From Candidatus Eiseniibacteriota bacterium (GTDB taxonomy: Bacteria > Eisenbacteria > RBG-16-71-46), in the NCBI GenBank assembly GCA_963744995.1, contig CAVUWA010000009.1, forward strand, positions 388,392 to 452,391: a DNA stretch of 64,000 bases, written 5' to 3'. The notes under the pieces are model-generated. The model made no database searches, had not been told where the DNA came from, and worked only from the letters and a program-made list of their open reading frames with translations. The translations under genes and the position numbers were made by a program. Shown piece after piece: positions 1 to 61,068 of this stretch. Each line of letters starts with the position of its first letter. The stretch's first letter is position 1.

Positions 1-168
1 GAGGTGCTCGAAGTCAACGCAGCGCTGGGCGACAACCCCGGGCTGGTCAATCAGGAACCGTTCGGCGAAGGCTGGCTGGTGCGCCTGAAGCCGACCACGG
101 CCGGTGAATTCGAGAAGCTGATGACCAGCGTCGACTACGAAAAGCTGGTCGAGGAGCAGCACACGTGA
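1..168 (+). CDS. gcvH: Glycine cleavage system H protein, C-terminal fragment; gene starts upstream of window
   Basis: Translation EVLEVNAALGDNPGLVNQEPFGEGWLVRLKP...EKLVEEQHT matches the conserved GcvH C-terminus (PELVNxDPYGxGW). Followed directly by gcvPA and gcvPB. Confidence 0.8.
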   Translation, partial: EVLEVNAALGDNPGLVNQEPFGEGWLVRLKPTTAGEFEKLMTSVDYEKLVEEQHT

Positions 169-1517: not shown

Positions 1518-3019
1518 ATCTCGAACGCCGATTGCTGAACGAACAGGGCGGCGAGGGCCACCGGGGTCCGGCGCTGCCCGCATGCGACGTCCCGACCCGC
1601 CCGCTCGAGGAGCTGCTCCCGGGCGCGACGCTGCGCGGGGCGCTCGACTTTCCGCGCGTCAGCGAGCCCGAGGTCGTGCGGCATTTCATCGAACTGTCCA
1701 CGCTCAACCACCACATCGACCGCGGCTTCTACCCGCTCGGCTCGTGCACGATGAAGCACAATCCGAAGATCAACGACGAGCTGGCTGCGCTGCCGGGCTT
1801 CGCCCTCGCCCACCCGCTCGGCGATGACGCCTCGAATCAGGGCGCGCTCGCGGTGATCCACGAGCTGCAGAAGACGCTCGCCGAGATCACCGGCTTCCAC
1901 GCCGTGACCACACAGCCCGCCGCCGGCGCGCAGGGCGAGTTGACCGGGCTGCTGATGATCCGCGCCTGGCACCGCTCGCGCGGGGAAGGGGACCAGCGCC
2001 GGGTGGTGATCGTGCCCGACTCGGCGCACGGCACCAATCCCGCGAGCGTGCATCTGGTCGGCTACGAGACGGTCACGGTGGCATCCGGTGGACGCGGCAC
2101 GGTGGACCCGCAGGCGCTGCGCGGGGCGCTCGACGATCGCACCGCAGCCGTCATGCTCACGGTGCCCAACACGCTCGGGTTGTTCGAGTCCGGGATCCTC
2201 GACGTGACGGCGCTTGCGCACGAAGCGGGGGCGCAGGTCTACATGGACGGCGCCAACCTGAACGCCCTGGTCGGGCACGTTCGCCCGGGCGATCTCGGTT
2301 TCGACGTCATGCACATCAACGTGCACAAGACGTTCTCGACCCCGCACGGCGGCGGCGGTCCCGGCGCCGGACCGGTCGCGGTGGCGAAGCATCTCGAGCC
2401 GTTCCTGCCGATCCCGGTCGTGGAGGAGCGTGACGGGCGCCTCGCCTTCAGTGAGGACCGGCCGCAGTCGGTCGGTCGGGTGCATGCGTTTCACGGCAAC
2501 TTCGGCATCCTGGTGCGGGCGCTGGCCTACATCCTCGGCTACGGCCCCGCAGGGCTGCGCGACGTCAGCCGTGCGGCGATTCTCAATGCCAACTGGCTGA
2601 TGCGGCGCCTGGCGCGCACCTACGAGCTGCCGCACCGGCAGCATTGCATGCACGAATTCGTGCTTTCGGGACGCGGGCTGCGCAAGTACGGCATCAAGAC
2701 GCTCGACGTGGCGAAACGCTTGCTCGACTTCGGCGTTCACGCGCCGACCGTCTACTTTCCCCTGATCGTCGAGGAAGCGCTGATGATCGAGCCGACCGAG
2801 ACGGAAACGCTCGACCGACTCGAACACTTCGCCGAGGCCATGGAACAGATCGCGCGCGAGGCGGCCGCGAATCCGGAACTGCTCCACTCGGCTCCGCACA
2901 CCACGCCGTCCGGGCGACTCGACGAAGGACGTGCGGCGCGCGAGCTGGTGCTGCGCTGGTCGGGCTCCGCGTCCGCGACGGCGGCACCGTCGCCCACGCA
3001 CGAGTCGGCGACGAGGTGA
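1514..3019 (+). CDS. gcvPB: Glycine dehydrogenase (decarboxylating) subunit 2, with ~40 aa low-complexity C-terminal tail
   Basis: GFYPLGSCTMKHNPKINDE and NVHKTFSTPHGGGGPG (PLP-lysine region) motifs. ATGA overlap with gcvPA. Confidence 0.9.
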   Translation: MNLERRLLNEQGGEGHRGPALPACDVPTRPLEELLPGATLRGALDFPRVSEPEVVRHFIELSTLNHHIDRGFYPLGSCTMKHNPKINDELAALPGFALAHPLGDDASNQGALAVIHELQKTLAEITGFHAVTTQPAAGAQGELTGLLMIRAWHRSRGEGDQRRVVIVPDSAHGTNPASVHLVGYETVTVASGGRGTVDPQALRGALDDRTAAVMLTVPNTLGLFESGILDVTALAHEAGAQVYMDGANLNALVGHVRPGDLGFDVMHINVHKTFSTPHGGGGPGAGPVAVAKHLEPFLPIPVVEERDGRLAFSEDRPQSVGRVHAFHGNFGILVRALAYILGYGPAGLRDVSRAAILNANWLMRRLARTYELPHRQHCMHEFVLSGRGLRKYGIKTLDVAKRLLDFGVHAPTVYFPLIVEEALMIEPTETETLDRLEHFAEAMEQIAREAAANPELLHSAPHTTPSGRLDEGRAARELVLRWSGSASATAAPSPTHESATR

Positions 3020-3498
3020 GGACGGCGCGTGCCATTTCCTCCGCGGAAGCTCCGTCCGCTCCGGGCCCCCTCGCGGGCCGCGCTGCGGTCGAGTGGACGT
3101 GGCAACCGTGGCGGGACCGGCCCGGGCGCGCGGCGCTGGCCGTGGTCGCCGCGTTCGGGCTGTGCGTGCTGGTCCTCAGGTTGACGCTGGCCCCGCTCAC
3201 GGCCCTGCTGCTCTCGATCGTGGTGGTCTCGGCGCTAGCCTCGAGCTTCCTGCCGGCCCGCTGCCGGGTGGACGCGGAAGGGGTGGCGCTGAGGGGCGGC
3301 GGCGGCTGGAGCTCACGGCGCTGGACGGACATCCGTCGCGCCCGCGTCGGCCGGCGCGGACTCTTCGTGTCACCCTTTTCGAGCCGCCGCTGGATGGACG
3401 CGTGGCGCGCGCTGTTCCTGCCCTTTCCCGCCGACCGCGCCGACGACCTGATCCGGGTCGTACAGCGCTACCTGGACGATCGTGACCTCGCGGCCTGA
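3016..3498 (+). CDS. Hypothetical membrane protein with two TM helices, possibly bacterial PH-domain-like
   Basis: GTG at 3016 overlaps the gcvPB stop (GTGA). Hydrophobic segment AALAVVAAFGLCVLVLRLTLAPLTALLLSIVVVSALA. The listed ORF 2644-3498 extends upstream in a frame overlapping gcvPB. Confidence 0.5.
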   Translation: MRTARAISSAEAPSAPGPLAGRAAVEWTWQPWRDRPGRAALAVVAAFGLCVLVLRLTLAPLTALLLSIVVVSALASSFLPARCRVDAEGVALRGGGGWSSRRWTDIRRARVGRRGLFVSPFSSRRWMDAWRALFLPFPADRADDLIRVVQRYLDDRDLAA

Positions 3499-3820
3499 GG
3501 GGATCACCGACGCCGACGAAGCGGTGCTGCGCCGCGTGGCGGCGCGGGTCGTCGAGCTGCGGATGGAAATCCCCGCGATCCTCACGATCGAAGGCGGGCT
3601 GCCGATGTCGGTGGTCGCGGGGCAGACGCTGCACTTTCTCCAGCCCGTGGTGCAGGCGATGTTCCGCCTGCCCGACTACCAGCGCTTCGCCGCGCTGATC
3701 GAGCGTCGCGAGTCGCTCGGGTATCTCGTGTCACTGATCGAAGAGCGAGCCGACGCTGCGCACCGCGAGCGGCGCGAAGCGGACCGCGCGCGCAAGGCGG
3801 CGCGCGCGGCGAGGCACTGA
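3482..3820 (+). CDS. Hypothetical protein (112 aa)
   Basis: GTG start overlaps the previous gene end. Non-repetitive composition. No family recognised. Confidence 0.4.
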   Translation: MTSRPEGITDADEAVLRRVAARVVELRMEIPAILTIEGGLPMSVVAGQTLHFLQPVVQAMFRLPDYQRFAALIERRESLGYLVSLIEERADAAHRERREADRARKAARAARH

Positions 3821-3833
3821 CCGGAAAGGACCG

Positions 3834-5645
3834 ATGGCGATTCGACCCGAGGACATTCACTCGATTCTCGCGACCGACTGCGGCTCGACGACCACCAAGG
3901 CGATCCTGATCGAGCGGCGCGAGGACGGTTACCGGCTGATCGTGCGGGGCGAGGCGCCGACCACGGTCGAAGCGCCGTTCGAGGACGTCACCCGCGGCGT
4001 GCTGAACGCCGTGAAAGAGGTGGAGGAACTGGCCGGACGCCGTCTCCTGGACGGCGAACGCATCATCACGCCGAGAGTCGGCGACGAAGGCGTCGATCTG
4101 TTCGTCTCGACCTCGAGCGCGGGCGGCGGCCTGCAGATGATGGTCTCCGGCCTGGTGCTGCAGATGACCGGCGAGTCCGCGCAGCGCGCGGCGCTCGGCG
4201 CGGGCGCGATCGTGATGGACGTCATCGCGCTCAACGACGGCCGCCGGCCCCACGAGAAGATCCGGCGGCTGCGCCAGCTGCGGCCCGACATGATCCTGCT
4301 CTCGGGTGGCACCGACGGCGGCGACGTCAGGCGCGTCGCCGAAATGGCGGAGATCCTGCTCGCTGCCGACCCGAAGGCGCGCCTCGGCACCGGTTACGAG
4401 CTGCCGGTGATCTACGCGGGGAATTGCGAGGCCGCGGATGTCGTGACCGAAACGCTCGGCAGGAGAACCGCGCTGAGCGTCGTGCCCAATCTGCGCCCGA
4501 CCCTCGAGCGCGAGAACCTGAAGCCCGCCCGCGATGCGATCCACGATCTGTTCATGGAGCACGTGATGGCGCACGCGCCGGGCTACAAGAAGCTCATGAC
4601 GTGGTCGCCGGTGCCGATCATGCCGACGCCGGGCGCCGTCGGGATCATCATCGAGAAGGTGGCGAAGCGCGACCGGCTCGCGGTCGTGGGGGTGGACATC
4701 GGCGGCGCGACGACGGACGTGTTCTCGGTGTTCCAGGAGATCTTCAATCGCACCGTCTCGGCCAACCTGGGCATGAGCTATTCGATCTCGAACGTGATGG
4801 CCGAGGCGGGCATCGAGCGGATCCTGCGCTGGGTGCCGTTCGACGTCGACGAAGGCGAGTTGCGCAACCGGATCAAGAACAAGATGATCCGACCGACGAC
4901 GATTCCGCAGGAACTCAGCGATCTGGTGATCGAGCAGGCGATCGCGCGGGAAGCGCTGCGGCTCGCGTTCGAGCAGCACAAGGCGCTCGCGGTGGGCCTC
5001 AAGGGCGTGCAGACCGAACGCACGATCTCCGACATCATGGCGCAGACGGAATCGGGATCCTCGCTGGTCAATCTGCTGGACCTCGGCCTGCTGGTCGGCT
5101 CGGGCGGAGTCCTGTCGCACGCGCCGCGAAGGGTGCAGGCGGCGCTGATGATGATCGATGCGTTCCTGCCGGAAGGACTCACGCACCTCGCCGTCGACAG
5201 CATCTTCATGGCGCCGCAGCTCGGCGTGCTTTCGAGCGTGCACGAGGAAGCGGCGACGCAGGTGTTCGAGCGCGACTGTCTCGTGCGGCTCGGCGCGGTG
5301 CTGGCGCCGATCGGCACGAGCAGAGTCGGCCAGCCCTGCGTGCGGGTGGAGCTCACCCGCAGCGACGGACAGAAGCTGGCCCGTGAGGTGGCGTTCGGGG
5401 ACCTGCTGCTCATGCCGCTGCCCAGGGACGGCGAGGTCGAGATGACGGCCACGCCGGAGCGCGGGTTCGACCTCGGCGAGGGCAAGGGACACCCGATCCG
5501 CGCCAGCGTGCGCGGCGGCGTCGTGGGTTTCATCGTCGACGCGCGCGGGCGCCGGCCCTTCGAGATCCCGTCGGATCCCGCGATCCGCATCGAGCGTCTG
5601 GGTGCCTGGAACCGGGCCCTCGGCGTGTACCCGGAGGACGTCTAG
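3834..5645 (+). CDS. ASKHA-fold ATPase of the glutamate-mutase-L (GlmL/MutL)-like family
   Basis: N-terminal DCGSTTTKA phosphate-1 motif, a second glycine-rich segment VVGVDIGGATTDVF, and GGTDGGD. Family assignment is from memory of the motif pattern. Confidence 0.65.
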   Translation: MAIRPEDIHSILATDCGSTTTKAILIERREDGYRLIVRGEAPTTVEAPFEDVTRGVLNAVKEVEELAGRRLLDGERIITPRVGDEGVDLFVSTSSAGGGLQMMVSGLVLQMTGESAQRAALGAGAIVMDVIALNDGRRPHEKIRRLRQLRPDMILLSGGTDGGDVRRVAEMAEILLAADPKARLGTGYELPVIYAGNCEAADVVTETLGRRTALSVVPNLRPTLERENLKPARDAIHDLFMEHVMAHAPGYKKLMTWSPVPIMPTPGAVGIIIEKVAKRDRLAVVGVDIGGATTDVFSVFQEIFNRTVSANLGMSYSISNVMAEAGIERILRWVPFDVDEGELRNRIKNKMIRPTTIPQELSDLVIEQAIAREALRLAFEQHKALAVGLKGVQTERTISDIMAQTESGSSLVNLLDLGLLVGSGGVLSHAPRRVQAALMMIDAFLPEGLTHLAVDSIFMAPQLGVLSSVHEEAATQVFERDCLVRLGAVLAPIGTSRVGQPCVRVELTRSDGQKLAREVAFGDLLLMPLPRDGEVEMTATPERGFDLGEGKGHPIRASVRGGVVGFIVDARGRRPFEIPSDPAIRIERLGAWNRALGVYPEDV

Positions 5646-6770
5646 ATGGCCCACGCCTACACCCCCGGCCTGCGCGTCACCCCGTACGCGATCCTCACCC
5701 GCGAACGCCGGCTGCCGCTCAAAGGCGAGGTGCTGGTCCGTAACGGTGATGCCGTGGAAGCGGACACGGTGGTCGCGCGCTGCGAGCTGCCGGGCAACGT
5801 GCAGACGGTGAACCTCGCGTCGAAGCTGGCGCTGGACCCGGCGCGCGCCCCGCAGTCGCTGCGCATCCCGCTGGGCTCGACCTGCCGCAAGGGCGATGTG
5901 ATCGCCGCGGCCTCTTCGATGTTCGGCCTGTTTCGCAACAAGGTCACCGCGCCGGCCGACGGCACCATCGAGAGCGTCTCCAGCGTGACCGGGCAGCTGA
6001 TCCTGCGCGAACGGCCGATCCCGGTCGAGGTCGACGCCTTCGTGCACGGCGTGGTCGCGGACACGATCCCCGGTGAAGGCGTCATCGTCGAGACGCGCGG
6101 GGCCTTCCTGCAGGGGATCTTCGGCGTGGGCGGCGAGACGTTCGGCGAGATCGCGATCGCGGCCGAATCCGCCGACGACGTTCTCGAGGCCGCGGCGCTC
6201 GACGCGTCGCACCGCGGCAAGGTGGTCGTCGGCGGCGCATACGTGTCGCACGCGGTGCTCATGCGCGCGAAGGAACTGGGCGTGGCCGCGGTGGTGGTCG
6301 GCGGCTTCGACGACCGCGATCTGCGCATGCTGCTCGGGCGCGATCTGGGCGTCGCCATCACCGGTTCCGAAGAGCTCGGGCTGACGCTCATCCTCACCGA
6401 AGGGTTCGGCCACATCCGCATGGCGGAGCGCACCTGGAAGCTGCTCGGCGAGAACGCCGGGCGCAAGGCTTCGGTCAGCGGCGCGACGCAGATCCGGGCC
6501 GGGGTGATGCGGCCCGAAATCCTCATCCCTCAGGAGAAGACCGCATTCCAGCCGGCGCGCGAGGCCGGAGAGCAGGGCCTCGACATCGGCACGCAGCTGC
6601 GGGTGATCCGCCAGCCGCACTTCGGCCGCATCGGCCGTGTGCTCGAGCTGCCGCCCGAGTTGCGTGCGCTGGAGAGCGAGGCCCGAGTACGGGTGCTGGT
6701 GGTCGAGTTCGACGACGACCACAGCCACGCCACGATCCCGCGTGCCAACGTCGAGATCATCGCGCGCTGA
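5646..6770 (+). CDS. Hypothetical protein, probably co-transcribed with the upstream ASKHA ATPase
   Basis: Starts 1 nt after the upstream stop. N-terminal hybrid-barrel-like segment GEVLVRNGDAVEADTVVARCELPG, Gly/Ala/Val-rich central region, and KOW-like C-terminus QLRVIRQPHFGRIGRVLEL. No family recognised. Confidence 0.6.
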   Translation: MAHAYTPGLRVTPYAILTRERRLPLKGEVLVRNGDAVEADTVVARCELPGNVQTVNLASKLALDPARAPQSLRIPLGSTCRKGDVIAAASSMFGLFRNKVTAPADGTIESVSSVTGQLILRERPIPVEVDAFVHGVVADTIPGEGVIVETRGAFLQGIFGVGGETFGEIAIAAESADDVLEAAALDASHRGKVVVGGAYVSHAVLMRAKELGVAAVVVGGFDDRDLRMLLGRDLGVAITGSEELGLTLILTEGFGHIRMAERTWKLLGENAGRKASVSGATQIRAGVMRPEILIPQEKTAFQPAREAGEQGLDIGTQLRVIRQPHFGRIGRVLELPPELRALESEARVRVLVVEFDDDHSHATIPRANVEIIAR

Positions 6771-6806
6771 GGCGCGCGCCGCGGCGCGGGCGAGGATCCA
6801 AAGTCG

Positions 6807-6835
6807 TTGACACCCATGCGCTTCGATGGTTAGCT
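6807..6835 (+). promoter_or_regulatory. Candidate sigma70 promoter (TTGACA-N17-TGgTTAGCT) upstream of the membrane-protein cluster
   Basis: Perfect TTGACA at 6807-6812 and an extended -10 TG motif. About 65 nt upstream of the GTG 6901 start. Confidence 0.4.
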
Positions 6836-6900
6836 TCGTCGCGTCGTCACACGGACGTTGCGGCCCCTCGAAAGTCCAGCGGGGCCGAAACCCATGGGGG

Positions 6901-8124
6901 GTGTTCTTGAGCGGAAGAATCGGGCGCTCGACGGGTGCGATCTCGGCCTTGCTGCTTGCGATCCCGCTGCTCTTCACCGCTCAGGCCGCGTGCGCGCAGG
7001 ATTCCGCGACGGGCGCCGCAGCCGCCGATTCGAGTTCGCAGGAGATCGCCCCGCCGCACGGCCTGGTCTGGCACGATCAGAAGAACGACGCCGGGCGCTC
7101 GATCATCCTCGACTGGAAGCCTTCGGCCGACGACGTCAAAGACGGATCCGTGGTCCGCGGCTACCGCATCGAGCGCGCCGAATCTCCCGCCGGTCCGTGG
7201 TCCGTCGTGGATTCGGTGCAGGCCGGCGTCACCAGCCGCACCGATCAGACCGTGCACCGCAACATCGAATACTTCTACCGGGTGATCGCGCTCACCCGGA
7301 ACGGCGACGTGCCCGCTCTCAGCGTGACCGGCCCGGCGATCGCGCGTTCCGAGTGGATCAACAGCGAGCGCTGGAGCGTGCTCGTCTTCACCGTGCTGTT
7401 CTTCGCCTTCGTGCTCTATTACATCGGCAGCGCGCAGGCGGGCAAGAAGCCGTTCGTCCGCCGCATTCCCGGCATCGACGCGATCGAGGAAGCCATCGGC
7501 CGCGCGACCGAAATGGGGCGCTCGGTGCTGTACGTGCCCGGGATCAACGACATCGACGAGATCCAGACGGTTGCGGGGCTGGTGATCCTCGAGAGCGTGG
7601 CGCGCATCACCGCCCGGTACGAGACGCCGATCAAGGTGCCCGTCACCTATCCCATTCCGTTCACGATCGCCCAGGAGATGGTGAAGAGCGGGTACCTGAA
7701 CGCCGGCAAGCCCGACCAGTACGATCCGGACAGCGTGCGCTTCGTGTCACCCGAGCAGTTCGCCTACGTCGCGGCGGTCACCGGCATGATGCTGCGCGAC
7801 AAGCCCGCCGCGCACATCTTCATGGGCGCGTTCTACGCCGAATCGCTGCTGCTCGCGGAGACCGGTTTCGCCACCGGCGCCATCCAGGTCGCCGGCACCG
7901 CGAACGTGGCCCAGCTGCCGTTCTTCGTCGTCGCCTGCGACTACACGCTCATCGGTGAGGAGCTCTATGCGGCGAGCGCGTACCTGTCCGGCGAGCCGAA
8001 GCTGGTCGGCAGCCTCAAGGGCGCGGATCTGATGAAGATCCTGATCATCGTCGTCATCCTCGTGGGCTCCCTGCTCGAGCAATCGGGTGTCACCGCATTC
8101 TCGGTCTGGATGAAGGGCCAGTAG
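6901..8124 (+). CDS. Secreted/membrane protein: signal peptide, FN3-like domain, then polytopic membrane domain (module A)
   Basis: GTG 6901 gives VFLSGRIGRSTGAISALLLAIPLLFTAQAACAQ (signal-like). GYRIERAESPAGPWSVVDSV...YFYRVIALTRNG has an FN3-like pattern. Several C-terminal TM helices. Confidence 0.6.
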   Translation: MFLSGRIGRSTGAISALLLAIPLLFTAQAACAQDSATGAAAADSSSQEIAPPHGLVWHDQKNDAGRSIILDWKPSADDVKDGSVVRGYRIERAESPAGPWSVVDSVQAGVTSRTDQTVHRNIEYFYRVIALTRNGDVPALSVTGPAIARSEWINSERWSVLVFTVLFFAFVLYYIGSAQAGKKPFVRRIPGIDAIEEAIGRATEMGRSVLYVPGINDIDEIQTVAGLVILESVARITARYETPIKVPVTYPIPFTIAQEMVKSGYLNAGKPDQYDPDSVRFVSPEQFAYVAAVTGMMLRDKPAAHIFMGAFYAESLLLAETGFATGAIQVAGTANVAQLPFFVVACDYTLIGEELYAASAYLSGEPKLVGSLKGADLMKILIIVVILVGSLLEQSGVTAFSVWMKGQ

Positions 8125-8134
8125 GAGGGACCCG

Positions 8135-8785
8135 ATGAAACGCGAGCTGCCCCTGTTCATGACGGCCGTCATCGGGCTCTTCATGATCGTGTCGTTCTTC
8201 GTGCCGCATCAGTGGGTGAGCGTGCCCGCGGACTTCCTGCAGGCATCTGCGATCATCGTCGTCGCCTTCGGGTACGTGCTCGGCGGCGCCAACGTGCTGC
8301 GGGTCAACCTCGACGGCATCGCGAAGCGGCAGCGGGACTGGCCGTACAAGGTCGTTCTGCTGGTCGCGCTGATCTCGATGGTGGCGATCGGCGCGTTCGA
8401 GGGCCCGGGCTTCCTCAATCCGGGCATGAAATCGCGCTGGATGTACGATCAGCTCTATTCGCCGATGGCTGCCACGATGTTCGCGCTGCTGGCCTTCTTC
8501 ATCGCCTCGGCGGCCTTTCGCGCGTTCCGCATCCGCACCACCGAGGCTGCGCTGCTCGCGGTTGCGGCGCTGCTGGTCATGCTCGGGCGCGTCCCGATCG
8601 GCAACCTGATGTCGGACTGGCTGCCCGAGCCGATGCGCCTCGCCAGCATTCAGGACTGGATCATGAACTGGCCGCAGAACGCCTCGAAACGCGCGATCCT
8701 GATCGGCGCCGCGCTGGGCGTGATGGCCACCGGACTCCGGGTGATTCTGGGGATCGAACGCTCGTATCTGGGCGGGGAGGACTGA
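8135..8785 (+). CDS. Polytopic membrane protein (module B)
   Basis: 216 aa with 5-6 hydrophobic helices. Resembles the gene at 9615-10298 (MYDQLYSP vs IYPNLYEP). Confidence 0.6.
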   Translation: MKRELPLFMTAVIGLFMIVSFFVPHQWVSVPADFLQASAIIVVAFGYVLGGANVLRVNLDGIAKRQRDWPYKVVLLVALISMVAIGAFEGPGFLNPGMKSRWMYDQLYSPMAATMFALLAFFIASAAFRAFRIRTTEAALLAVAALLVMLGRVPIGNLMSDWLPEPMRLASIQDWIMNWPQNASKRAILIGAALGVMATGLRVILGIERSYLGGED

Positions 8786-9618
8786 TGGCGGGCCTGTGGG
8801 CGTTCCTCGAGCGGCTCGACCGGCGCTGGATCTTTCTGGTGATGGGCATTCTGGTGCTGGTGCCGCTGATCTGGCCGATCTCGCTGCCCCTGAAGGTCAC
8901 GCCGCCGGTGCAGGGGTACGTCGACGCCATCGACGCGCTGCCGGAGGGCTCCACGGTGCTGATGTCCTGCGACTACGACCCCGGCGCGATTCCCGAGCTG
9001 GTGCCGATGACCAAGACCACCTTCCGGCAGCTGCTCAGCAAGAACTGCAAGGTCGTGGTGACCGTGCTGTGGAACGGCGGCCCGGGACTCGTGGACGGCG
9101 TGCTCCAGGAGGTCGCCGCCGAGTTCCCCGACAAGAAGTACGGCGTCGACTACGTCAACCTCGGTTACAAATCGGGCAACGAGGCCGTCATGGTGCTGAT
9201 GGGGCAGGGGGTCGCCAACGCGTTCCCGCGCGACTACCGCGGCAAGGACGTGAAGGACTATCCGATCATGCGGCACGTGACGGACTACTCGTCGTTCCCT
9301 CTGCTGATCAGCCTTTCGGCCGGCTATCCCGGCACCAAGGAGTGGGTGCAGCAGGTGAACACGCGATTCAATCTGCCGATGATCGCCGGAGTCACGGCGG
9401 TGAGCGCCCCGGAGTTCTACCCCTATCTGCAGTCGCATCAGTTGCTCGGCATGCTCGGTGGCATGGCCGGCGCGGCCGAATACGAGAAGGCGCGCGGTGA
9501 GAAAGGGCTGGCCACGAAGGGCATGGACGCCCAGTCGCTCGGCCACCTGTTCGTGGCGCTGTGCATCATCCTCGGCAACCTCATCCAGTGGAACCGCAGG
9601 GGGAGGGTGACCGCGTGA
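8785..9618 (+). CDS. Membrane protein with N-terminal TM helix, a soluble domain and a C-terminal TM helix (module A')
   Basis: ATGA overlap with the previous gene. Segment GYVDAIDALPEGSTVLMSCDYDPGA resembles GIDAIEEAIGRATEMGRSVLYVPGI in the gene at 6901. Confidence 0.6.
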   Translation: MAGLWAFLERLDRRWIFLVMGILVLVPLIWPISLPLKVTPPVQGYVDAIDALPEGSTVLMSCDYDPGAIPELVPMTKTTFRQLLSKNCKVVVTVLWNGGPGLVDGVLQEVAAEFPDKKYGVDYVNLGYKSGNEAVMVLMGQGVANAFPRDYRGKDVKDYPIMRHVTDYSSFPLLISLSAGYPGTKEWVQQVNTRFNLPMIAGVTAVSAPEFYPYLQSHQLLGMLGGMAGAAEYEKARGEKGLATKGMDAQSLGHLFVALCIILGNLIQWNRRGRVTA

Positions 9619-10298
9619 ACGTGTCTCATGACTGGAGCGTGTGGATCGCGGCCCTGCTGACGCTCTTCATCCTCAGCTTCGTCTACAAGGACAACCCGTT
9701 CTACAAGTTCGCCGAGCACCTCTTCGTCGGCGTGTCGGCCGGCTACTGGATGATCCTCAACTTCTGGACGGTGATCTATCCGAACCTCTATGAGCCGCTG
9801 CGGCAGGCGCTCCACGGACACGGTGTCGACGCCTCGCGGGTGGGGATGTTCGCAGCGGAACAGGGGGACTATCGCGGTTTCCTGATTCTGCCCGGCGTCC
9901 TCGGCGTCCTGCTGTTCACGCGGCTGTTCGGGAAGATCGGCTGGATGTCGCGGCTGTCGCTGGCGATGATCATCGGGGTCTACGTGGGCATCAAGACCAC
10001 CGGCTTCGCGCAGGGCGATTTCGTGGAGCAGGTGCGCGCCAGCATGCAGCCGCTGTGGACGGGGTCGATCGGCCACAGCGTGAACGCGATCCTCTTCACG
10101 ATCGGCCTGATCTGCTCGCTGTTGTTCTTCTTCTTCAGCCGCGAGCACAAAGGCGCGCTGGGGATCGCCTCGAAGATCGGCGTCTACTTCCTGATGGTCG
10201 GTTTCGGCGCGGGCTATGGCTACACGGTGATGTCGCGCATTTCGCTGCTGATCGGACGTTTCCAGTTCCTGCTCCATGACTGGCTCGGCATCACCTGA
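9615..10298 (+). CDS. Polytopic membrane protein (module B')
   Basis: GTG overlaps the upstream stop (GTGA). Multi-TM. Paralogous to 8135-8785. Confidence 0.6.
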   Translation: MNVSHDWSVWIAALLTLFILSFVYKDNPFYKFAEHLFVGVSAGYWMILNFWTVIYPNLYEPLRQALHGHGVDASRVGMFAAEQGDYRGFLILPGVLGVLLFTRLFGKIGWMSRLSLAMIIGVYVGIKTTGFAQGDFVEQVRASMQPLWTGSIGHSVNAILFTIGLICSLLFFFFSREHKGALGIASKIGVYFLMVGFGAGYGYTVMSRISLLIGRFQFLLHDWLGIT

Positions 10299-10325
10299 TC
10301 CGCGTTCCGCCCCGGCCGTTCCGGC

Positions 10326-10358
10326 GCCCCCGGCCGCACGCCGGGGGTTTCGCGTTTC
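10326..10358 (+). terminator. Candidate intrinsic terminator after the membrane cluster
   Basis: Hairpin cccccggc/cgcac/gccggggg followed by tttcgcgtttc. Confidence 0.5.
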
Positions 10359-11141
10359 ATGGACGGGGTCCCGGTGATCCTGTGGGCCGACGGACGCCAC
10401 GGCGCAGTCGAGAACATGCGCCGCGACGGGGCGCTGCTCGACCGCCTCAAATCCGGCGCGGACGCCGAGGCCGTGCTGCGGATCTACGGCTTCGCCCCGC
10501 CGGGCATCACCCTGGGGCTCGCGCAGCGGGCCGAGCGCGAACTCGACCTCGAGGCGTGCCGTACGGACGGCGTCGAATGGGCGGTGCGGCCGACCGGAGG
10601 CCGCGCGATCTACCACGACGAGGAGTGGACCTACGCGCTGGCGGCCCGCATCGAGGATCCCTCGTGGGGGGGCACGCTGCGTGAGGCCTACGCGCGCGGC
10701 TCGGCGCTGATCGTGGCCGCGCTCAATGGGATCGGGATTCCGGCCGAGCTCGCCGCCCGTGAGCGCCGCGATCCCGCGGACGGCCCGCGGCGGCCGGGTG
10801 GGGGGGCGTCGGCGCCCTGCTTCGCGTCGACCGCCCGCCACGAGATCGTGCTCGCCGGACGCAAGCTGGTCGGCAGTGCCCAGCGGCGCACGGCGCGCGC
10901 GCTGCTCCAGCAGGGCAGCATTCTGCTCGGGCCGTCGCACCGGCGCCTGGCGCGCTACATGGCCGTCTCCAGCGCCCGCGATCGGGCCAGAGGGCAGCTC
11001 GAGGGCGGCGCGGCGGAAGCCGGGCCACCGTGGCGGGCCGGCGATCCCGCGCCGTTCGCGAACGCTCTCGCGAAGACGATCGGCGATTCAGTCCGGCGCC
11101 TGGACGGCGACGCCGGGCTGCGCCTGTTGACCATCGCGTGA
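10359..11141 (+). CDS. Lipoate-protein ligase / octanoyltransferase family protein (BPL_LplA_LipB catalytic domain)
   Basis: GRKLVGSAQRR ... QQGSILL motifs typical of LplA/LipB. The start could instead be GTG 10374, because the terminator abuts 10359. Confidence 0.7.
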   Translation: MDGVPVILWADGRHGAVENMRRDGALLDRLKSGADAEAVLRIYGFAPPGITLGLAQRAERELDLEACRTDGVEWAVRPTGGRAIYHDEEWTYALAARIEDPSWGGTLREAYARGSALIVAALNGIGIPAELAARERRDPADGPRRPGGGASAPCFASTARHEIVLAGRKLVGSAQRRTARALLQQGSILLGPSHRRLARYMAVSSARDRARGQLEGGAAEAGPPWRAGDPAPFANALAKTIGDSVRRLDGDAGLRLLTIA

Positions 11142-13141: not shown

Positions 13142-13210
13142 CAATGACACCCACCGCGCCACAGTGAATGAATGACGCGCCCAGGCGGGTCGAGCGTGAG
13201 CCGCTTTGTG

Positions 13211-13240
13211 TTGACCCATCCGAAGCGGGCTCCCTATACT
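13211..13240 (+). promoter_or_regulatory. Candidate sigma70 promoter TTGACC-N18-TATACT for the second SBP gene
   Basis: Strong -10 TATACT. Spacer gcgggctccc resembles the first SBP promoter spacer. Confidence 0.45.
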
Positions 13241-13289
13241 CCGGCGGGCCTGTGTAACCGCTGTTCGCACAACACCTGAGGGAGGGTGA

Positions 13290-19541: not shown

Positions 19542-19859
19542 CTTCCGTTGTCGGCCGGACGCCAGCGGCGCCCCGCCGACGCGGACGCGAAGCCCGCCGG
19601 GCCTGCCTCCGCCGCAGCGAAAAAACCGAATGTGTTCCCTGGACGATTCGTGCTTGGCCGGCTGTGGGCTGATCCCCCTATCGCGAGCGAAGGAGTCTTA
19701 CGGTCGCGCACACGGTCGAATCGGGGAACATCTTAGGGCCCCGCGCTCGCCGACCTGCAGCTTGCCAGACATCCCCGAGGCGACCGGGGCCCATCATCTT
19801 CTTCGCTGCCGCGTGATCCCGCCACCGCCCGCCGGAACCCGCTGCGTTGACCCCTTCCG
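19528..19859 (+). repeat. Two direct copies of CCCGnTGCGTTGACC(CC)TTCCG about 310 bp apart in the non-coding leader
   Basis: Copies at 19528-19547 and 19838-19859, read from sequence. Confidence 0.5.
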
Positions 19860-19876
19860 GCAAGCTTGCTAGCGTG
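19848..19876 (+). promoter_or_regulatory. Candidate promoter TTGACC-N17-TAGCGT for the BMC operon
   Basis: The -35 lies within the second repeat copy. Transcript would start about 60 nt upstream of the BMC-H GTG. Confidence 0.3.
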
Positions 19877-19945: not shown

Positions 19946-20248
19946 GTGGCGGTCGAGTCGCTCGGACTCGTCGAGACGCGAGGCTGGGTGGGGGCGGTGG
20001 AGGCGGCCGACGCCATGTGCAAGGCGGCGTCCGTGCGCCTCGTCCGCTACGAAGTCGTGACCGATGCGTGGGTCACCGTGGTGGTGCGCGGGCCGCTGGC
20101 GGACGTCGAGGCTGCCGTCGCTGCGGGCGCTGCGGCCGCCGGGCGGGTCGGCGAGTGCGTCGTCAGACACGTGATTCCGCGTCCGGATGAACAGCTGGAA
20201 GCACCCATGGGAGGCGCCGCCGCCGCCGGTGGCGCGCCTTCGCCGTGA
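19946..20248 (+). CDS. Bacterial microcompartment shell protein, BMC-H (PduA/EutM/CcmK-like hexamer)
   Basis: GTG start with gggagg RBS 10 nt upstream. [30 protein letters not shown]...VIPRP is a canonical Pfam00936 BMC-domain pattern. Confidence 0.85.
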
Positions 20249-20270
20249 ACCTTCGCCCAAGGAGTCGTCC

Positions 20271-20570
20271 ATGCAGGAAGAAGCGCTGGGCCTGATCGAA
20301 ACACGTGGCTTCGTGGCCATGGTCGAGGCGTCGGACGCGATGGTGAAGGCCGCGCGTGTGGCACTCGTCCACTACGAGAAGATCGGCGGCGGTTACGTGA
20401 CGACCGTGGTGCGCGGCGACGTCGCCGCGGTGCGCGCCGCCACCGAAGCCGGCGCCGCCGCCGCGGCGAAGGTCGGCGAAGTGGTGTCGGTGCACGTGAT
20501 CCCGCGTCCGCACGGCCAGCTCGAGGACGTGCTGCCGATCCGTCGCCCCGAGCCCGCCGGCAAGAAGTAG
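20271..20570 (+). CDS. Bacterial microcompartment shell protein, BMC-H (second paralog)
   Basis: aaggag [61 protein letters not shown]...VHVIPRPH. Confidence 0.85.
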
Positions 20571-20579
20571 CGCCGGGAC

Positions 20580-20888
20580 ATGCTGCTCGCGCGGGTCGTG
20601 GGCACCGTGGTGTCCACGCGCAAGGACACCGGCCTCACCGGCCTCAAGCTGCTGCTCGTGCGCGAAGTCGACGCCTCGTTCGAGGCGTCGGGCGCGTTCG
20701 TGGTGGCGGCGGATGCGGTGGGCGCCGGCACCGGTGAGGTGGTGATGATCGCGCAGGGTTCCTCCGCGCGCATGACGGAGGTCTCGCGTGAGAAGCCGGT
20801 GGATGCGGTGATCACCGGCATCGTGGACGCGGTGGAGATCGACGGGCAGGACGTCTACCTCAAGCGTGACACCAGGGCGGCACGCTGA
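20580..20888 (+). CDS. BMC vertex protein, BMC-P (EutN/CcmL/PduN family)
   Basis: MLLARVVGTVVSTRKDTGLTGLKLLLV...AADAVGAGTGEVVMIAQGSSAR has the typical EutN_CcmL signature. Confidence 0.85.
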   Translation: MLLARVVGTVVSTRKDTGLTGLKLLLVREVDASFEASGAFVVAADAVGAGTGEVVMIAQGSSARMTEVSREKPVDAVITGIVDAVEIDGQDVYLKRDTRAAR

Positions 20889-22303
20889 TGGCCGTCGACG
20901 CACGCCGGGTCGAAGCGATCGTCTCGCAGGTGCTGGAGCGCCTCGGGCAGGGCCCGGGCGCGGCGGGCGGCGCGAAACCGCTCGGCGTCCACGCTACGCT
21001 CGATGCCGCCGTGGCGGGCGCCCGCGCCGCCTACGAGGCGTTCGACCGGGTACCGCTCGCGACACGCCAGGCGATCATCGCCTCGATCCGCGAGGCGCTC
21101 TCGACCCAGTACCGCACGCTCGCCGAGATCGCGGTCCAGGAGACGGGGCTCGGGCGCGTCGAGGACAAGATCCTCAAGAATCGCCTGGTCACCGAGAAGA
21201 CCCCGGGCACCGAGGATCTCGAGCCGCTCGCATGGACCGGCGACCACGGGATGACGCTGCGCGAGCTCGCCCCGTACGGTCCGATCGCGGTGATCACTCC
21301 GGTCACCAACCCGAGCGAGACCGTCATCAACAACGGGATCTCGATGATCGCGGGCGGGAATACGGTCGTGCTCTGCCCGCATCCGAACGCGAAGCGGGTG
21401 TCGAACGTCACGGTGGATCTCATGAACCGTGCCGCCCTGCGCGCGGGGGCGGCGCTGCCTCTGCTGCACGCCGTCGAAGAGCCCTCGATCGAGGTGGCGA
21501 AGAAGCTGCTGCACTACCCGGGCATCCGGCTCAACGTGGTCACCGGCGGCCCGGCGGTGGTCAAGGAGGCGCTGTCGGCGCAGAAGAAGTCCATCACCGC
21601 CGGTCCCGGCAATCCGCCGGCGGTGGTCGACGAGACCGCGGACATCGAGAAGGCGGCGCGCGACATCGTCAACGGCGGCTCGCTCGACAACAACATCATC
21701 TGCACCGACGAGAAGGAAGTGATCGCCGTGGGTCTGATCGCCGACCGGCTGAAGGAGGCGTTCTCGCGCTCGGGCGCGATCGTCCTGCAGCCGCACCAGA
21801 TCGAGAAGCTGCGGCGCCTGATCCTCGAGAAGGAAAACGGCCCGCGCAAATACGCGGTCATCCAGCGCCGCTTCGTCGGCAAGAACGCCGACGTGATCCT
21901 GGCGGAGGCGGGCATCCCCTGCGATCCGGGGAAGCGCCTCGCCGTGTGCGAGGTCGATCACGATCACCCGTTCCTGTGGACCGAGCTGATGATGCCGGTG
22001 ATGGCGATGACCCGCGTGCGCACGGTCGACGAGGCGATCGACCTGGCGATCGAGGTCGAGCACGGCTTCCGTCACACCGCGTCGATGCACTCGCGCAACA
22101 TCGAGAAGCTGTCGAAGATGGCGCGGCTCTGCAACGCTTCGATCTTCGTGAAGAACGGCCCGAACTACGCCGGTCTCGGCTACGGCGGCGAGGGGCCGAC
22201 CAGTTTCACGATCGCGAGCCCCACCGGCGAAGGCATGACGACCGCCCGCAGCTTCACGCGCGTGCGTCGCTGCACGCTCGTCGACGCGTTCCGGATCGTG
22301 TGA
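20888..22303 (+). CDS. Aldehyde dehydrogenase, CoA-acylating EutE/PduP-like, with N-terminal encapsulation-peptide-like helix
   Basis: Predicted N-terminal amphipathic helix RRVEAIVSQVLERL followed by a G/P/A-rich linker. The catalytic core carries the NNIICTDEKEV catalytic-Cys region. ATGA overlap with the upstream BMC-P. Confidence 0.85.
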   Translation: MAVDARRVEAIVSQVLERLGQGPGAAGGAKPLGVHATLDAAVAGARAAYEAFDRVPLATRQAIIASIREALSTQYRTLAEIAVQETGLGRVEDKILKNRLVTEKTPGTEDLEPLAWTGDHGMTLRELAPYGPIAVITPVTNPSETVINNGISMIAGGNTVVLCPHPNAKRVSNVTVDLMNRAALRAGAALPLLHAVEEPSIEVAKKLLHYPGIRLNVVTGGPAVVKEALSAQKKSITAGPGNPPAVVDETADIEKAARDIVNGGSLDNNIICTDEKEVIAVGLIADRLKEAFSRSGAIVLQPHQIEKLRRLILEKENGPRKYAVIQRRFVGKNADVILAEAGIPCDPGKRLAVCEVDHDHPFLWTELMMPVMAMTRVRTVDEAIDLAIEVEHGFRHTASMHSRNIEKLSKMARLCNASIFVKNGPNYAGLGYGGEGPTSFTIASPTGEGMTTARSFTRVRRCTLVDAFRIV

Positions 22304-22854
22304 TGCACGTCGCCATTGCTGCCGTCGAGACCAGCAGCATCGCCCAGGGCGCCGTCGTGGGCGACGCCATGGTGAAGATGGCCGAGGTCGAGATCGTCGA
22401 GGCGAGCGTGCTCTCGCCCGGCAAGTACTGGGTGGTGATCGGCGGCGGTGTGGCGGAGGTGCGGGCCTCGCACGCGCGCGGCGTAGAGGTCGCCGCCGAC
22501 ACGCTCCTCGATTCGCTGCTGATTCCGCAGATCCACCCGATGGTGCTCGCGGCGGCGCGCGGCACGGTGCCGCGCGGCGACGCCGACGATGCGCTCGGCG
22601 TGATCGAGACGCTCAGCGCTTCGGCGGCGATCGTCGCCGCGGACGCTGCCGCCAAGGCGGCGCAGGTGACGTTGCGCGACCTGCGGCTCGCCAACGGGAT
22701 CGGCGGCAAAGGGGTCCTGTACCTGACCGGCGAGGTCAGCGAGGTACAGGCGGCGGTGGACGCCGGCCGCGAGGAAGCGCAACGCCGCGGGCTGCTGGCC
22801 CGCGCCGTTGTGATTCCGCGTCTGCACGGGCAGATGAAGGCGCGGATCCGCTAG
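22303..22854 (+). CDS. Tandem-domain BMC shell protein, BMC-T (PduT-like)
   Basis: Two BMC-like halves: IAAVETSSIAQGAVVGDAMVKMAEVEIV...LSPGKYWVVIGGGVAEV, and GVIETLSASAAIVAADAAAKAAQVTLRDLRLANGIGGKGVLYLTGEVSEVQAAV...VIPRLH. Collinear with PduT as recalled from memory. Confidence 0.75.
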   Translation: MHVAIAAVETSSIAQGAVVGDAMVKMAEVEIVEASVLSPGKYWVVIGGGVAEVRASHARGVEVAADTLLDSLLIPQIHPMVLAAARGTVPRGDADDALGVIETLSASAAIVAADAAAKAAQVTLRDLRLANGIGGKGVLYLTGEVSEVQAAVDAGREEAQRRGLLARAVVIPRLHGQMKARIR

Positions 22855-23129
22855 TGCAGTTCGCACGCGTCATCGGCACCGTGGTCTGCACGGTCCGGGT
22901 GCCCGCCTGGCGCGGCCATCGGATGCTGCTGGTCGAACCGACCGATTCGAGCGGCGCGGCCACCGGCGGACGTCCGCTCGTCGCGATCGACCTGGTCTCG
23001 GCGGCCCGGGGGCAGCGGGTGTTCTACGTGCGCGGCCGTGAGGCGGCCAACGCGCTGCCGGATCCGGACAACCCCGCCGACGCGGCCATCGTCGGCATCG
23101 TCGACGACGTGCTGGCGGAGAAACCCTGA
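22854..23129 (+). CDS. BMC vertex protein, BMC-P (second EutN/CcmL paralog)
   Basis: GTG overlaps the TAG stop. MQFARVIGTVVCTVRVPAWRGHRMLLVEP...VAIDLVSAARGQRVFYVRG. Confidence 0.8.
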   Translation: MQFARVIGTVVCTVRVPAWRGHRMLLVEPTDSSGAATGGRPLVAIDLVSAARGQRVFYVRGREAANALPDPDNPADAAIVGIVDDVLAEKP

Positions 23130-23410
23130 TGTTCCTCGCGCGCGTGGTCGGTCACGTCGTGGCGACGGTGAAGCACGCGGATCTCGACGCGCGGAAGCTC
23201 CTGCTGGTGCATCCGCTCCTCCCGGACGGGACGCCGACCGGGAGAGCGGTGATCGCCGTCGACGCGGTGGATGCGGGGCCGGGCGATCATGTCCTGGTCG
23301 CCGACGAGGGCAACTCCGCGGCGCAGGTGCTCAGGCGCCCGCGCGGCCCGATCCGCACGGTCGTGGTGGGCGTCGTGGACGCCGTGGAGACCGCTGCGGA
23401 CGGGGTCTGA
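23129..23410 (+). CDS. BMC vertex protein, BMC-P (third EutN/CcmL paralog)
   Basis: ATGA overlap. MFLARVVGHVVATVKHADLDARKLLLVHPL...AVDAVDAGPGDHVLVADEGNSA. Confidence 0.8.
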   Translation: MFLARVVGHVVATVKHADLDARKLLLVHPLLPDGTPTGRAVIAVDAVDAGPGDHVLVADEGNSAAQVLRRPRGPIRTVVVGVVDAVETAADGV

Positions 23411-35473: not shown

Positions 35474-36352
35474 TCAGCGTCCGGCGGCCGGGGCCGCCAG
35501 CACCTCACCCGCGATCCGCGCGAGCGCGGTGTCCGGAGAGACGGCGGCGAAGTCACGCACCGCGCGCACGAGCGCGGTGTCGCGCGCGCCCGCCGCAGCG
35601 TCCAGCGCGAGCCAGGCCTCGCGGCCCGCATCGGCGTGGTGCGCGCGACGCTCGAGCACCGCCGCTAGCGTCTCGGCGGCCGCCGGGCGACGCCCGAACG
35701 TGCGCGGCGCCTTCCACAGCGCGCGGGCCGCCTCGCAGCGCACCTCCTCGACCGGATCGCCGAGCAGCGTCACGAGCCGGACCCGCAGGCTGTCGCGCAG
35801 CGGATCGTCGAGGTGCCGCGCGGGGAACGCCGGGCGATCGTGCTCGATGTCGGTGACGATCAGATTGACGCCCAGGGCGAGGGCGGCGCGGGCGCGCACG
35901 GCGGGATCCGCATCGCGGGAGAGCGGCAGCAGCCGCGCCACGGTCTCCGGGGAACGGTAGCTCCAGCGCCGGATCGCGCGAATCTTCCCCGCCGCGGTCG
36001 ACGGCAGCGGCGGCTCGCCGCCGGCAGGCACGAACGGGTGCCAGACGAGCGGCGAGAGGCCGAGCAGGACGGCGACGGCACGGGCGATGAAGCGGCGGCG
36101 GCCGGCCGGCATGCGTCGCCCGGCAAACCAGGCGCCGAGCGCCATGCCGTAGACGCTCGGCCAGATCCAGCCGCCGTCGGTGAGCCATGCGCGGTAGGCG
36201 TGGCCGGCACGCGGATCATGGGCCATGACGCCGATGCCGTCGATCGCGTAGCCGGCGGCAAGGGTCAGCAGACCGCCCAGCAGCGCACCGGCGATCAGTG
36301 CGCCCGCGAGCGGGGGCGCGTCGCTCAGTCCTCGCGGACGATCGCTTTCCAC
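35474..36352 (-). CDS. Membrane-anchored HEAT-repeat protein; start uncertain
   Basis: N-terminal TM segment LIAGALLGGLLTLAAGYAI. HEAT-like DADPAVRARAALALG and GDPVEEVRCEAARALW. GTG 36352 start overlaps the upstream gene by 28 nt; an alternative start is ATG 36226. Confidence 0.5.
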   Translation of the reverse strand: MESDRPRGLSDAPPLAGALIAGALLGGLLTLAAGYAIDGIGVMAHDPRAGHAYRAWLTDGGWIWPSVYGMALGAWFAGRRMPAGRRRFIARAVAVLLGLSPLVWHPFVPAGGEPPLPSTAAGKIRAIRRWSYRSPETVARLLPLSRDADPAVRARAALALGVNLIVTDIEHDRPAFPARHLDDPLRDSLRVRLVTLLGDPVEEVRCEAARALWKAPRTFGRRPAAAETLAAVLERRAHHADAGREAWLALDAAAGARDTALVRAVRDFAAVSPDTALARIAGEVLAAPAAGR

Positions 36353-36666
36353 ACCATGCCCACGATCGCCAGCAGCAACGAGCCCAGCAGCAGCGCACCG
36401 AAACCGCGGACGTGGAACCCGGGCACCACCAGATCCGTGAGCCACAGCATCACCGCGTTGAGGATCAGCAGGAAGAAGCCGAGGGTCACGATCGTCAGCG
36501 GCAGAGTGAGCAGGAACAGCACGGGCTTGATGACGGTGTTGGCCAGGCCGAGGACGAGGGCCGCCAGGATCGCGGGCCCCCAGCCGCTCACGAAGAACCC
36601 CGGGATCACGTGGGACAGCGACATGAACGCACAGGCCATGACGAGGAAATAGAGGACGTGTTTCAC
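36325..36666 (-). CDS. Small membrane protein, phage-holin-family (YvlD/DUF360-like)
   Basis: VKHVLYFLVMACAFMSLSHVIPGFFVSGWGPAILAALVLGLANTVIKPVLFLLTLPLTIVTLGFFLLILNAVMLWL. GTG start with ggaggg RBS. Overlaps the stop of the upstream MetH/MetF gene. Confidence 0.6.
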   Translation of the reverse strand: MKHVLYFLVMACAFMSLSHVIPGFFVSGWGPAILAALVLGLANTVIKPVLFLLTLPLTIVTLGFFLLILNAVMLWLTDLVVPGFHVRGFGALLLGSLLLAIVGMVWKAIVRED

Positions 36667-50253: not shown

Positions 50254-50430
50254 GGTCGCACCGCGCAGCGTCGTCGCGTTCCGCACGGGGCCTCCCGGAC
50301 CCCGTTGCGTTTCGCCCGCCCGGGCGGGCGGCGGCCGGAGCGCGTTCTGCGCATCCGGCCCGCGGATGGCGTCGGCAGGCGATGGTATGGTCCGTGCAAG
50401 CCGGGTGAGTACATTCACCCAACTCCCATG

Positions 50431-55085: not shown

Positions 55086-55161
55086 GCGGGCATAGCTCAG
55101 TTGGTAGAGCGCGAGCTTCCCAAGCTTGAGGTCGCGGGTTCGAACCCCGTTGCCCGCTCCA
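55086..55161 (+). tRNA. tRNA-Gly (anticodon CCC)
   Basis: Cloverleaf read by eye: acceptor GCGGGCA/TGCCCGC, anticodon loop TTCCCAA, T-loop GGTTCGAAC, 3' CCA encoded. Confidence 0.9.
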
Positions 55162-58712: not shown

Positions 58713-58789
58713 CGGGGCGTAGCGCAGCCTGGTAGCGCACCTGCATGGGGGGCAGGTGGTCGCTGGTTCAAATCCAGTCGCCCCGACCA
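58713..58789 (+). tRNA. tRNA-Pro (anticodon GGG)
   Basis: Acceptor CGGGGCG/CGCCCCG, anticodon loop ATGGGGG, T-loop GGTTCAAAT, CCA encoded. Confidence 0.85.

Positions 58790-60991: not shown

Positions 60992-61068
<77 letters not shown>

Follow-up and report, generated by a model that had tools for sequence, protein, structure and literature searches.

How does a bacterial microcompartment (BMC) obtain its aldehyde when the operon that builds its shell encodes a single enzyme? The question is raised by seven genes at 19946-23410 on the + strand of a 64,000-nucleotide stretch of a Candidatus Eiseniibacteriota genome (GenBank assembly GCA_963744995.1, contig CAVUWA010000009.1, positions 388,392 to 452,391; hereafter the window), in which genes for BMC shell proteins surround a gene for a coenzyme A (CoA)-acylating aldehyde dehydrogenase (AldDh). 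Judged by gene content and synteny, the operon is a rediscovery of a known, functionally uncharacterised locus type, MIC7, and we consider it on balance probable that this MIC7-type operon of Candidatus Eisenbacteria is a reduced aldolase metabolosome whose aldehyde is made by an enzyme encoded outside the operon.

A shell operon with one predicted lumen enzyme

The window has a GC content of 70%, and the operon consists of seven consecutive open reading frames (ORFs) in the order BMC-H, BMC-H, BMC-P, AldDh, tandem BMC-T, BMC-P, BMC-P, each gene call having been checked by Pfam profile search. BMC-H1 (19946-20248; BMC PF00936, E=4e-26) encodes a hexamer protein of the specialised kind, marked by the motifs CKAAS and IPRPD, and BMC-H2 (20271-20570; PF00936, E=4e-29) one of the standard kind, with KAARV and IPRPH. 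BMC-P1 (20580-20888; EutN_CcmL PF03319, E=3e-28) encodes a pentamer (vertex) protein, as do its paralogs BMC-P2 (22854-23129; PF03319, E=4e-24) and BMC-P3 (23129-23410; PF03319, E=1e-24), the three being mutually 39-48% identical. The tandem BMC-T (22300-22854; two PF00936 domains, E=2e-37) is of the non-permuted PduT type and agrees with the class Ts_drab of the published BMC catalogue discussed below; it reads LSPGKY and lacks the pore cysteine, and its positional ortholog in the fuller locus L126 reads ICPGKY and adjoins PduS. Taken together, these genes encode a complete shell kit: two hexamers, one standard and one specialised, three distinct pentamers, and a PduT-like pseudohexamer that has no Fe-S pore.

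The remaining gene (20888-22303; Aldedh PF00171, E=2e-29) encodes an AldDh of the CoA-acylating PduP/EutE type, whose best solved relatives are 5JFL and 5JFM (E=2e-130) and whose catalytic Cys272, within LDNNIICTDEKE, aligns with the cysteine of those structures. Residues 1-25 are not part of the catalytic domain and consist of the amphipathic VEAIVSQVLERL followed by a Gly/Pro-rich linker, which is the usual form of an encapsulation peptide. The encapsulation-peptide motif occupies residues 8-19, and a pattern search found it in no other gene of the window. AldDh, with its N-terminal encapsulation peptide, is thus to judge from its sequence the only lumen enzyme that the operon encodes. It is 100% identical to one NCBI/ENA protein, and the relatives that are 75-90% identical to it come from Candidatus Eisenbacteria metagenome-assembled genomes.

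The original prediction, made by a model from the letters of the window, had named two BMC-H, three BMC-P and one tandem BMC-T together with a CoA-acylating AldDh bearing an encapsulation-peptide-like N-terminus. All of its shell assignments passed the profile searches, and the 5JFL match, Cys272 and the VEAIVSQVLERL motif bear out its view of the enzyme. Its description of tight packing with overlaps of 1-4 nt is correct for four junctions (P1/AldDh, AldDh/T, T/P2 and P2/P3) and incorrect for the remaining two, which are gaps of 22 and 9 nt.

The operon as a member of the MIC7 type

MIC7, the metabolosome with incomplete core 7, is listed with 6 loci from the phyla Latescibacteria and Eisenbacteria in the catalogue of Sutter et al. 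2021 (Nat Commun 12:3809, Supplementary Data 2, PMC8217296). The catalogue gives its shell as one standard and one specialised BMC-H with a BMC-P triplet, reports a Ts_drab lacking the pore cysteine and PduS in 4 of the 6 loci, places its BMC-Tdp in a satellite and in the CsoS1D clade, and names SPU3 as the closest type for its AldDh (PMC8217296). In its own gene content the window locus shows no difference from this description. AldDh is the sole enzyme beside the shell proteins and carries, at the level of sequence, the N-terminal encapsulation peptide; a standard BMC-H (KAARV, PRPH), a specialised BMC-H (CKAAS, PRPD) and the P triplet are all present, as judged by motifs rather than by the colour clades of the catalogue; and the PduT-like BMC-T is without pore cysteine or, by tblastn, a PduS partner. 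Moreover, the window operon is the direct syntenic ortholog of a catalogued locus, that of Candidatus Eisenbacteria RBG_16_71_46, which has the same seven genes, the same neighbours on either side and an AldDh 77% identical to that of the window, and whose proteins A2W00_06480 (101 aa, BMC-P) and A2W00_06470 (182 aa, Ts_drab, pduT-like) are labelled bmcType=MIC7 in the supplementary trees (PMC8217296). A literature search found nothing on MIC7 microcompartments beyond the catalogue; PMC11323493, the one paper found to mention BMCs and Eisenbacteria together, was set aside, its subject being another phylum.

Against the 6 catalogued loci, the present comparison includes about 45 species representatives. 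A scan with AldDh, using one genome per GTDB species, returned 80 loci, about 45 of which (AldDh 69-80% identical, nearly all labelled Eisenbacteria; hereafter clade A) have the order H-H-P-AldDh-T-P-P and occupy one common chromosomal slot, between an Opp operon and Zn-ribbon/HU/RNB genes. No added enzyme was found within +/-10 kb in these loci. Pairwise ratios of nonsynonymous to synonymous substitution rates (dN/dS) against seven clade-A loci are 0.02-0.40 for every gene, with values of 0.11-0.22 for BMC-H1 and 0.02-0.08 for BMC-H2, the latter protein being 94% identical across clade A. The operon is therefore maintained by purifying selection and is no relic.

Collinear aldolase loci and a probable origin by reduction

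The other loci of the AldDh scan (53-61% AldDh identity) form two groups, SPU3 loci and Eisenbacteria-type aldolase loci. SPU3 (sugar-phosphate utilisation) loci, from many phyla, have the order RpiB-DeoC fusion (PF02502+PF01791), Tdp, H, P, AldDh, Ts, P, P. The aldolase loci have two forms, both ending in a class II aldolase gene (PF00596). The fuller form (L126, L211, L212) reads PduL-H-H-P-AldDh-PduS-T(Cys pore)-P-P-class II aldolase and has an encapsulation-type helix at the N-terminus of PduL, the phosphotransacylase (PTAC), and at the aldolase's C-terminus. The intermediate form (L060, L057, L052, L075, L205, L207, L209, L210) reads H-P-AldDh-T-P-P-aldolase and is preceded by a gene for a 1,090-aa secreted protein with a HExxH motif and a FlgD_ig domain.

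The aldolase loci are collinear with the window operon over H-(H)-P-AldDh-T-P-P, have the most similar shell proteins, carry the same encapsulation-peptide motif on AldDh and are preceded by the same structured RNA, described below. Each window gene has its best match in L126 at the equivalent position, and six of the seven window proteins are nearer the aldolase loci than SPU3 (for example, 83% vs 66% for H2, 44% vs 37.5% for T and 50.5% vs 41% for P2). They differ from the window operon in adding the PF00596 aldolase with its C-terminal encapsulation peptide and, in one form, PduL, PduS and a Cys-pore BMC-T, and thereby resemble the PduS-containing MIC7 variants and the MIC4/MUF/PVM-like aldolase types of the catalogue. 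Aldolase types are recognised by such an aldolase and, in some types, by a PTAC; both are absent from the window and present in the sister loci.

The collinear fuller loci, the similarity of the shell proteins and the common upstream RNA together make MIC7 look like a reduced aldolase metabolosome, and MIC7 is read most economically as the metabolosome of the Eisenbacteria-type aldolase group after loss of PduL, PduS and aldolase from the locus. With these three gone, the aldehyde would be made by an enzyme outside the operon. The ancestral aldehyde was probably lactaldehyde-like, the product of an aldolase of the fuculose/rhamnulose-phosphate type.

Several points weigh against this descent. 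AldDh, the one exception among the window proteins, is marginally nearer SPU3 (mean 57% vs 55% identity to the aldolase-type loci), whose AldDhs rank with the closest relatives beyond clade A; the catalogue likewise names SPU3, and a neighbour-joining tree of AldDh alone leaves its sister group unsettled. The direction of change, loss rather than gain, is chosen on parsimony. The BMC-Tdp that the catalogue places in a satellite is missing from the 64 kb, a view that takes in 64 kb of the genome only. Finally, an aldehyde-producing enzyme, a phosphotransacylase and an alcohol dehydrogenase were not located for the lineage in the window or in the flanks of its orthologs, nor did an aldolase or PduL of clade A turn up in the searches of the best 120 clusters described below.

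A conserved structured RNA upstream of the operon

Between the Opp ATPase gene and BMC-H1 lie 700 nt of spacer DNA, little conserved apart from a block at about 19634-19750. Across 38 species this block is 80-95% identical, a higher figure than for the BMC-H coding DNA. Covariation within this block points to a structured RNA of about 100 nt at 19634-19729 (covariance model match 19632-19745), a rod-like hairpin of six helices. In a MAFFT alignment 95.3% of cells are paired, compared with 36-49% when the partners are slid, 11 pairs change on both sides and the observed score was reached by none of 500 shuffles; when diverged members were added, 18 of 35 pairs changed on both sides. The RNA is assigned to the + strand because of its invariant G-U pairs. 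Its single-sequence fold is no stabler than that of shuffles (z ~0), the support for the structure being that from covariation. Rfam gave no match to the RNA or the leader even at E<=10, and we found no paper describing an Eisenbacteria RNA or riboswitch of this kind.

A covariance model (R1) was used to scan the loci and found one copy per clade-A locus, 200-340 nt before BMC-H1, but no copy in any SPU3 locus scanned. Both fuller architectures are likewise preceded by copies, which are diverged and score 29-50 bits. The RNA precedes every Eisenbacteria-type BMC locus examined, in all three architectures. Two loci have an additional copy: L025 carries two in tandem (8128-8240 and 8653-8766) ahead of one BMC operon, and in L005 a second, weaker one lies at 4801-4913.

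A scan of metagenomes with the core pattern of the RNA returned 80 loci, in 52 of which a BMC-H gene follows within 195-460 nt (892 nt in L126). Matches in L088, L092, L095, L112, L125, L131, L142 and L152 were rejected by the covariance model as chance occurrences. In L102, L104, L129 and L159 the RNA (at 13173-13286 on the - strand in L102 and 3465-3578 on the - strand in L129) lies between the familiar Opp ATPase and Zn ribbon/HU flanks, but a gene for a secreted subtilase of about 650 aa (PF00082 + FlgD_ig) replaces the operon. In L060, L205 and L207 the RNA lies 65-100 nt before the gene for the 1,090-aa secreted HExxH protein, which itself stands ahead of the BMC genes. A further clade-A-type copy (110 bits), at 265-377 of L098, is followed by a gene for a 526-aa polytopic membrane protein; this is a 2.9-kb microbial-mat contig that may be chimeric.

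Two further elements lie between the RNA and the first BMC gene, both on the + strand. A second, terminator-like hairpin at 19735-19792, with the closing stem GGGCCCCG/CGGGGCCC and AUCAUCUUCUU directly after it, is present in all relatives checked, and the closing stem covaries (CCCG/CGGG, CCUG/CAGG, CUCG/CGAG). The window's own fold gives both hairpins, and in the lower-GC relatives L060 and L205 the counterpart of the second one has the canonical form of a stem with a U-tract and lies about 30 nt ahead of the following start codon. At 19847-19875, about 70 nt before BMC-H1, lies a promoter-like element, TTGACC, 17 nt, (TGc)TAGCGT, to which a promoter function is ascribed from its conservation: TTGAC(C/A)-N17-TGcTAGCGT is kept directly before the first BMC gene in clade-A loci, L126 and L050. 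A generic promoter/terminator consensus scan called nothing, missing the promoter-like element because its -10 hexamer matches the consensus at 3 of 6 positions.

The terminator-like stem ahead of the next start codon suggests the layout of an attenuator or riboswitch, while the promoter-like element between that stem and the first BMC gene means that the RNA could be a separate small transcript. We therefore regard the RNA as a candidate new attenuator, riboswitch or small RNA (sRNA). We propose more tentatively, with rather less than even confidence, that the hairpin and terminator-like stem at 19634-19792 constitute a new class of regulatory element, be it a cis-acting attenuator, a riboswitch or an sRNA resembling one, which would couple the microcompartment, in its three architectures, and secreted proteases to one signal, and that MIC7 works without an encapsulated aldehyde-producing enzyme. 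EutX/Rli55, a riboswitch-containing sRNA at eut microcompartment loci, offers a parallel in having a structured RNA and terminator just upstream of a microcompartment operon with its own promoter. The RNA described here is not known to resemble it in sequence or structure, and differs in lacking any match to the Rfam B12 riboswitch and in also preceding protease genes.

The search for the missing cargo

The 64-kb window was searched by Pfam scans of about 45 further ORFs and by six-frame tblastn with PduL, PduS, class II aldolase, the RpiB-DeoC fusion, BMC-Tdp and the window's own shell proteins as queries. The tblastn search of the window gave no match beyond 19946-23410, and the two approaches together revealed no DeoC, RpiB, class II aldolase, PduL, PduS, BMC-Tdp or extra shell gene in the 64 kb. 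Diol dehydratase, ethanolamine ammonia-lyase and glycyl-radical enzyme, by which the PDU, EUT and GRM types are recognised, were absent from the Pfam matches across the window. The original prediction had noted the lack of the usual metabolosome cargo (dehydratase, ammonia-lyase, glycyl-radical enzyme, class II aldolase and PduL), and these searches of the window agree with it. Its reading of the locus as an incomplete-core metabolosome is also upheld, as the published catalogue files the locus type in the same way, and both the 64-kb window and the roughly 45 orthologous loci with their +/-10 kb of surroundings lack a canonical signature enzyme. The flanks that it had described, a peptide ABC transporter upstream and FmdB, IHF and RNase downstream, were likewise recovered by Pfam.

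Satellite copies elsewhere in related genomes were sought with the aldolase of L052 and the PduL of L126 as queries, in each case among the best 120 clusters. For the aldolase, all matches of 52% identity or more that were looked up are genes of fuller operons, and the next tier of matches belongs to the ACI type of Acidobacteria (aldolase, H, P, P, P, 2-hydroxyacid dehydrogenase). For PduL, a large block at 61-70% identity consists of L126-type loci. Among the matches looked up in these two sets of 120, none was a satellite aldolase or PduL from a clade-A context. The clade-A AldDh itself fills its best 120 clusters, all at at least 75% identity; because this block is so large, a co-inherited aldolase or PduL would be expected to appear as a similar block, and since none was seen, the searches weakly favour loss of aldolase and PduL over their relocation. 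Cargo that is not orthologous, or the Tdp locus that the catalogue places in a satellite, would be compatible with this outcome.

Alternative explanations and a working model

These satellite searches also bear on whether MIC7 has a dedicated signature enzyme at all. That they yielded only in-operon copies of the fuller loci or other BMC types, and that the set of seven genes does not vary across about 45 species, could be explained if the compartment were a self-sufficient trap into which cytosolic aldehydes diffuse and in which they are oxidised, the minimal aldehyde-detoxifying compartment that the original prediction had offered as its other option. However, AldDh would stall in such a trap without encapsulated recycling of its cofactors, unless NAD+ and CoA cross the shell, and the absence of cargo is read from ranked lists of the best 120 clusters. 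It is also established that the aldehyde source is enclosed in every characterised metabolosome (Sutter et al. 2021, PMC8217296). We judge this explanation possible but rather unlikely.

The marginally closer match of AldDh to SPU3 raises a different prospect, that the window operon belongs to a split SPU3, a sugar-phosphate (deoxyribose-5-phosphate) metabolosome whose RpiB-DeoC and BMC-Tdp have moved to a satellite and whose aldehyde is acetaldehyde. The catalogue, with its SPU3-like MIC7 AldDh and satellite Tdp (PMC8217296), can be read in this way; AldDh identity to SPU3 averages 57% and reaches a maximum of 61%, and the SPU3 order is collinear with the window from H onward, as H-P-AldDh-Ts-P-P with a P triplet and a Ts without pore cysteine. 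However, SPU3 loci differ in having the RpiB-DeoC signature enzyme and an in-locus Tdp and in lacking the second BMC-H. The shell proteins of the window are consistently nearer the aldolase-type loci, the upstream RNA is absent from every SPU3 locus scanned, and the Tdp of MIC7 falls in the CsoS1D clade (PMC8217296), whereas that of SPU3 is CcmP-like. RpiB and DeoC, both present in the SPU3 comparison loci, were found neither in the six frames of the window nor within +/-10 kb of the 45 clade-A loci. This split arrangement therefore seems improbable. Far less credible still is the suggestion that the operon is a decaying, non-functional remnant left by the loss of aldolase, PduL and PduS. The core enzymes of the sister lineages are indeed missing here, and a few metagenome contigs have the subtilase gene in the operon's chromosomal slot, but seven intact ORFs persist in about 45 species at dN/dS of 0.02-0.40, and the catalytic cysteine, the encapsulation peptide and the promoter-like element are all conserved.

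Under the reading that we favour, a reduced aldolase metabolosome, BMC-H2 would be the main facet protein, BMC-H1 and BMC-T would form minor facets and the three pentamers would occupy the vertices. The N-terminal peptide would recruit AldDh into this shell, where a short-chain aldehyde would be oxidised to acyl-CoA with NAD+ and the reactive aldehyde kept from the cytosol. The source of the aldehyde, outside the operon, might be unlinked cargo or a cytosolic enzyme, and the recycling of CoA and NAD+ would likewise fall to unlinked functions.

Other features of the window

Upstream of the operon lie genes for two SBP_bac_5 proteins and then, directly 5' of it, Opp-type permeases and ATPases; downstream are genes for an FmdB-type Zn ribbon, HU/IHF, an RNB RNase, PilZ, AroA, PlsC, S1, MutS and MutL. 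Further Pfam matches include glycine-cleavage P subunits (108-3019) and a lipoate ligase (10299-11141), between which a cluster at 3738-8785 comprises a PF13941 'MutL'-type ASKHA ATPase (of the glutamate-mutase accessory family), an ORF without Pfam match, a DUF6754 protein and an unassigned ORF. The glycine-cleavage, lipoate-ligase and peptide-transporter genes upstream were considered as possible partners of the operon (for example, through a threonine aldolase yielding acetaldehyde), but the idea was dropped, as its sole support was synteny conserved in one clade. Sizeable ORFs at 35669-36652, 50254-51765 and 9561-10298 have no Pfam match but a coding-like GC content at third codon positions, and 17 related loci keep the last of these upstream of their Opp genes. 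Three tRNA genes (55086-55158, 58713-58786 and 60992-61065) are the sole matches in the window at Rfam gathering thresholds.

Implications

As a further example of a catalogued, functionally uncharacterised type, the operon itself will not surprise specialists. What is new is the graded collinear series of full, intermediate and minimal loci within one phylum-level group, which argues for the descent of MIC7 from an aldolase metabolosome and supplies natural comparison strains. Operons of this kind, with a seven-gene minimal set of shell genes and one enzyme, may also be a convenient chassis for shell engineering. Also new is the covariation-supported RNA that accompanies the Eisenbacteria-type loci, which offers a handle on their regulation and possibly on their substrate: if the riboswitch reading is true, the ligand or partner of the RNA would point to the substrate of MIC7.

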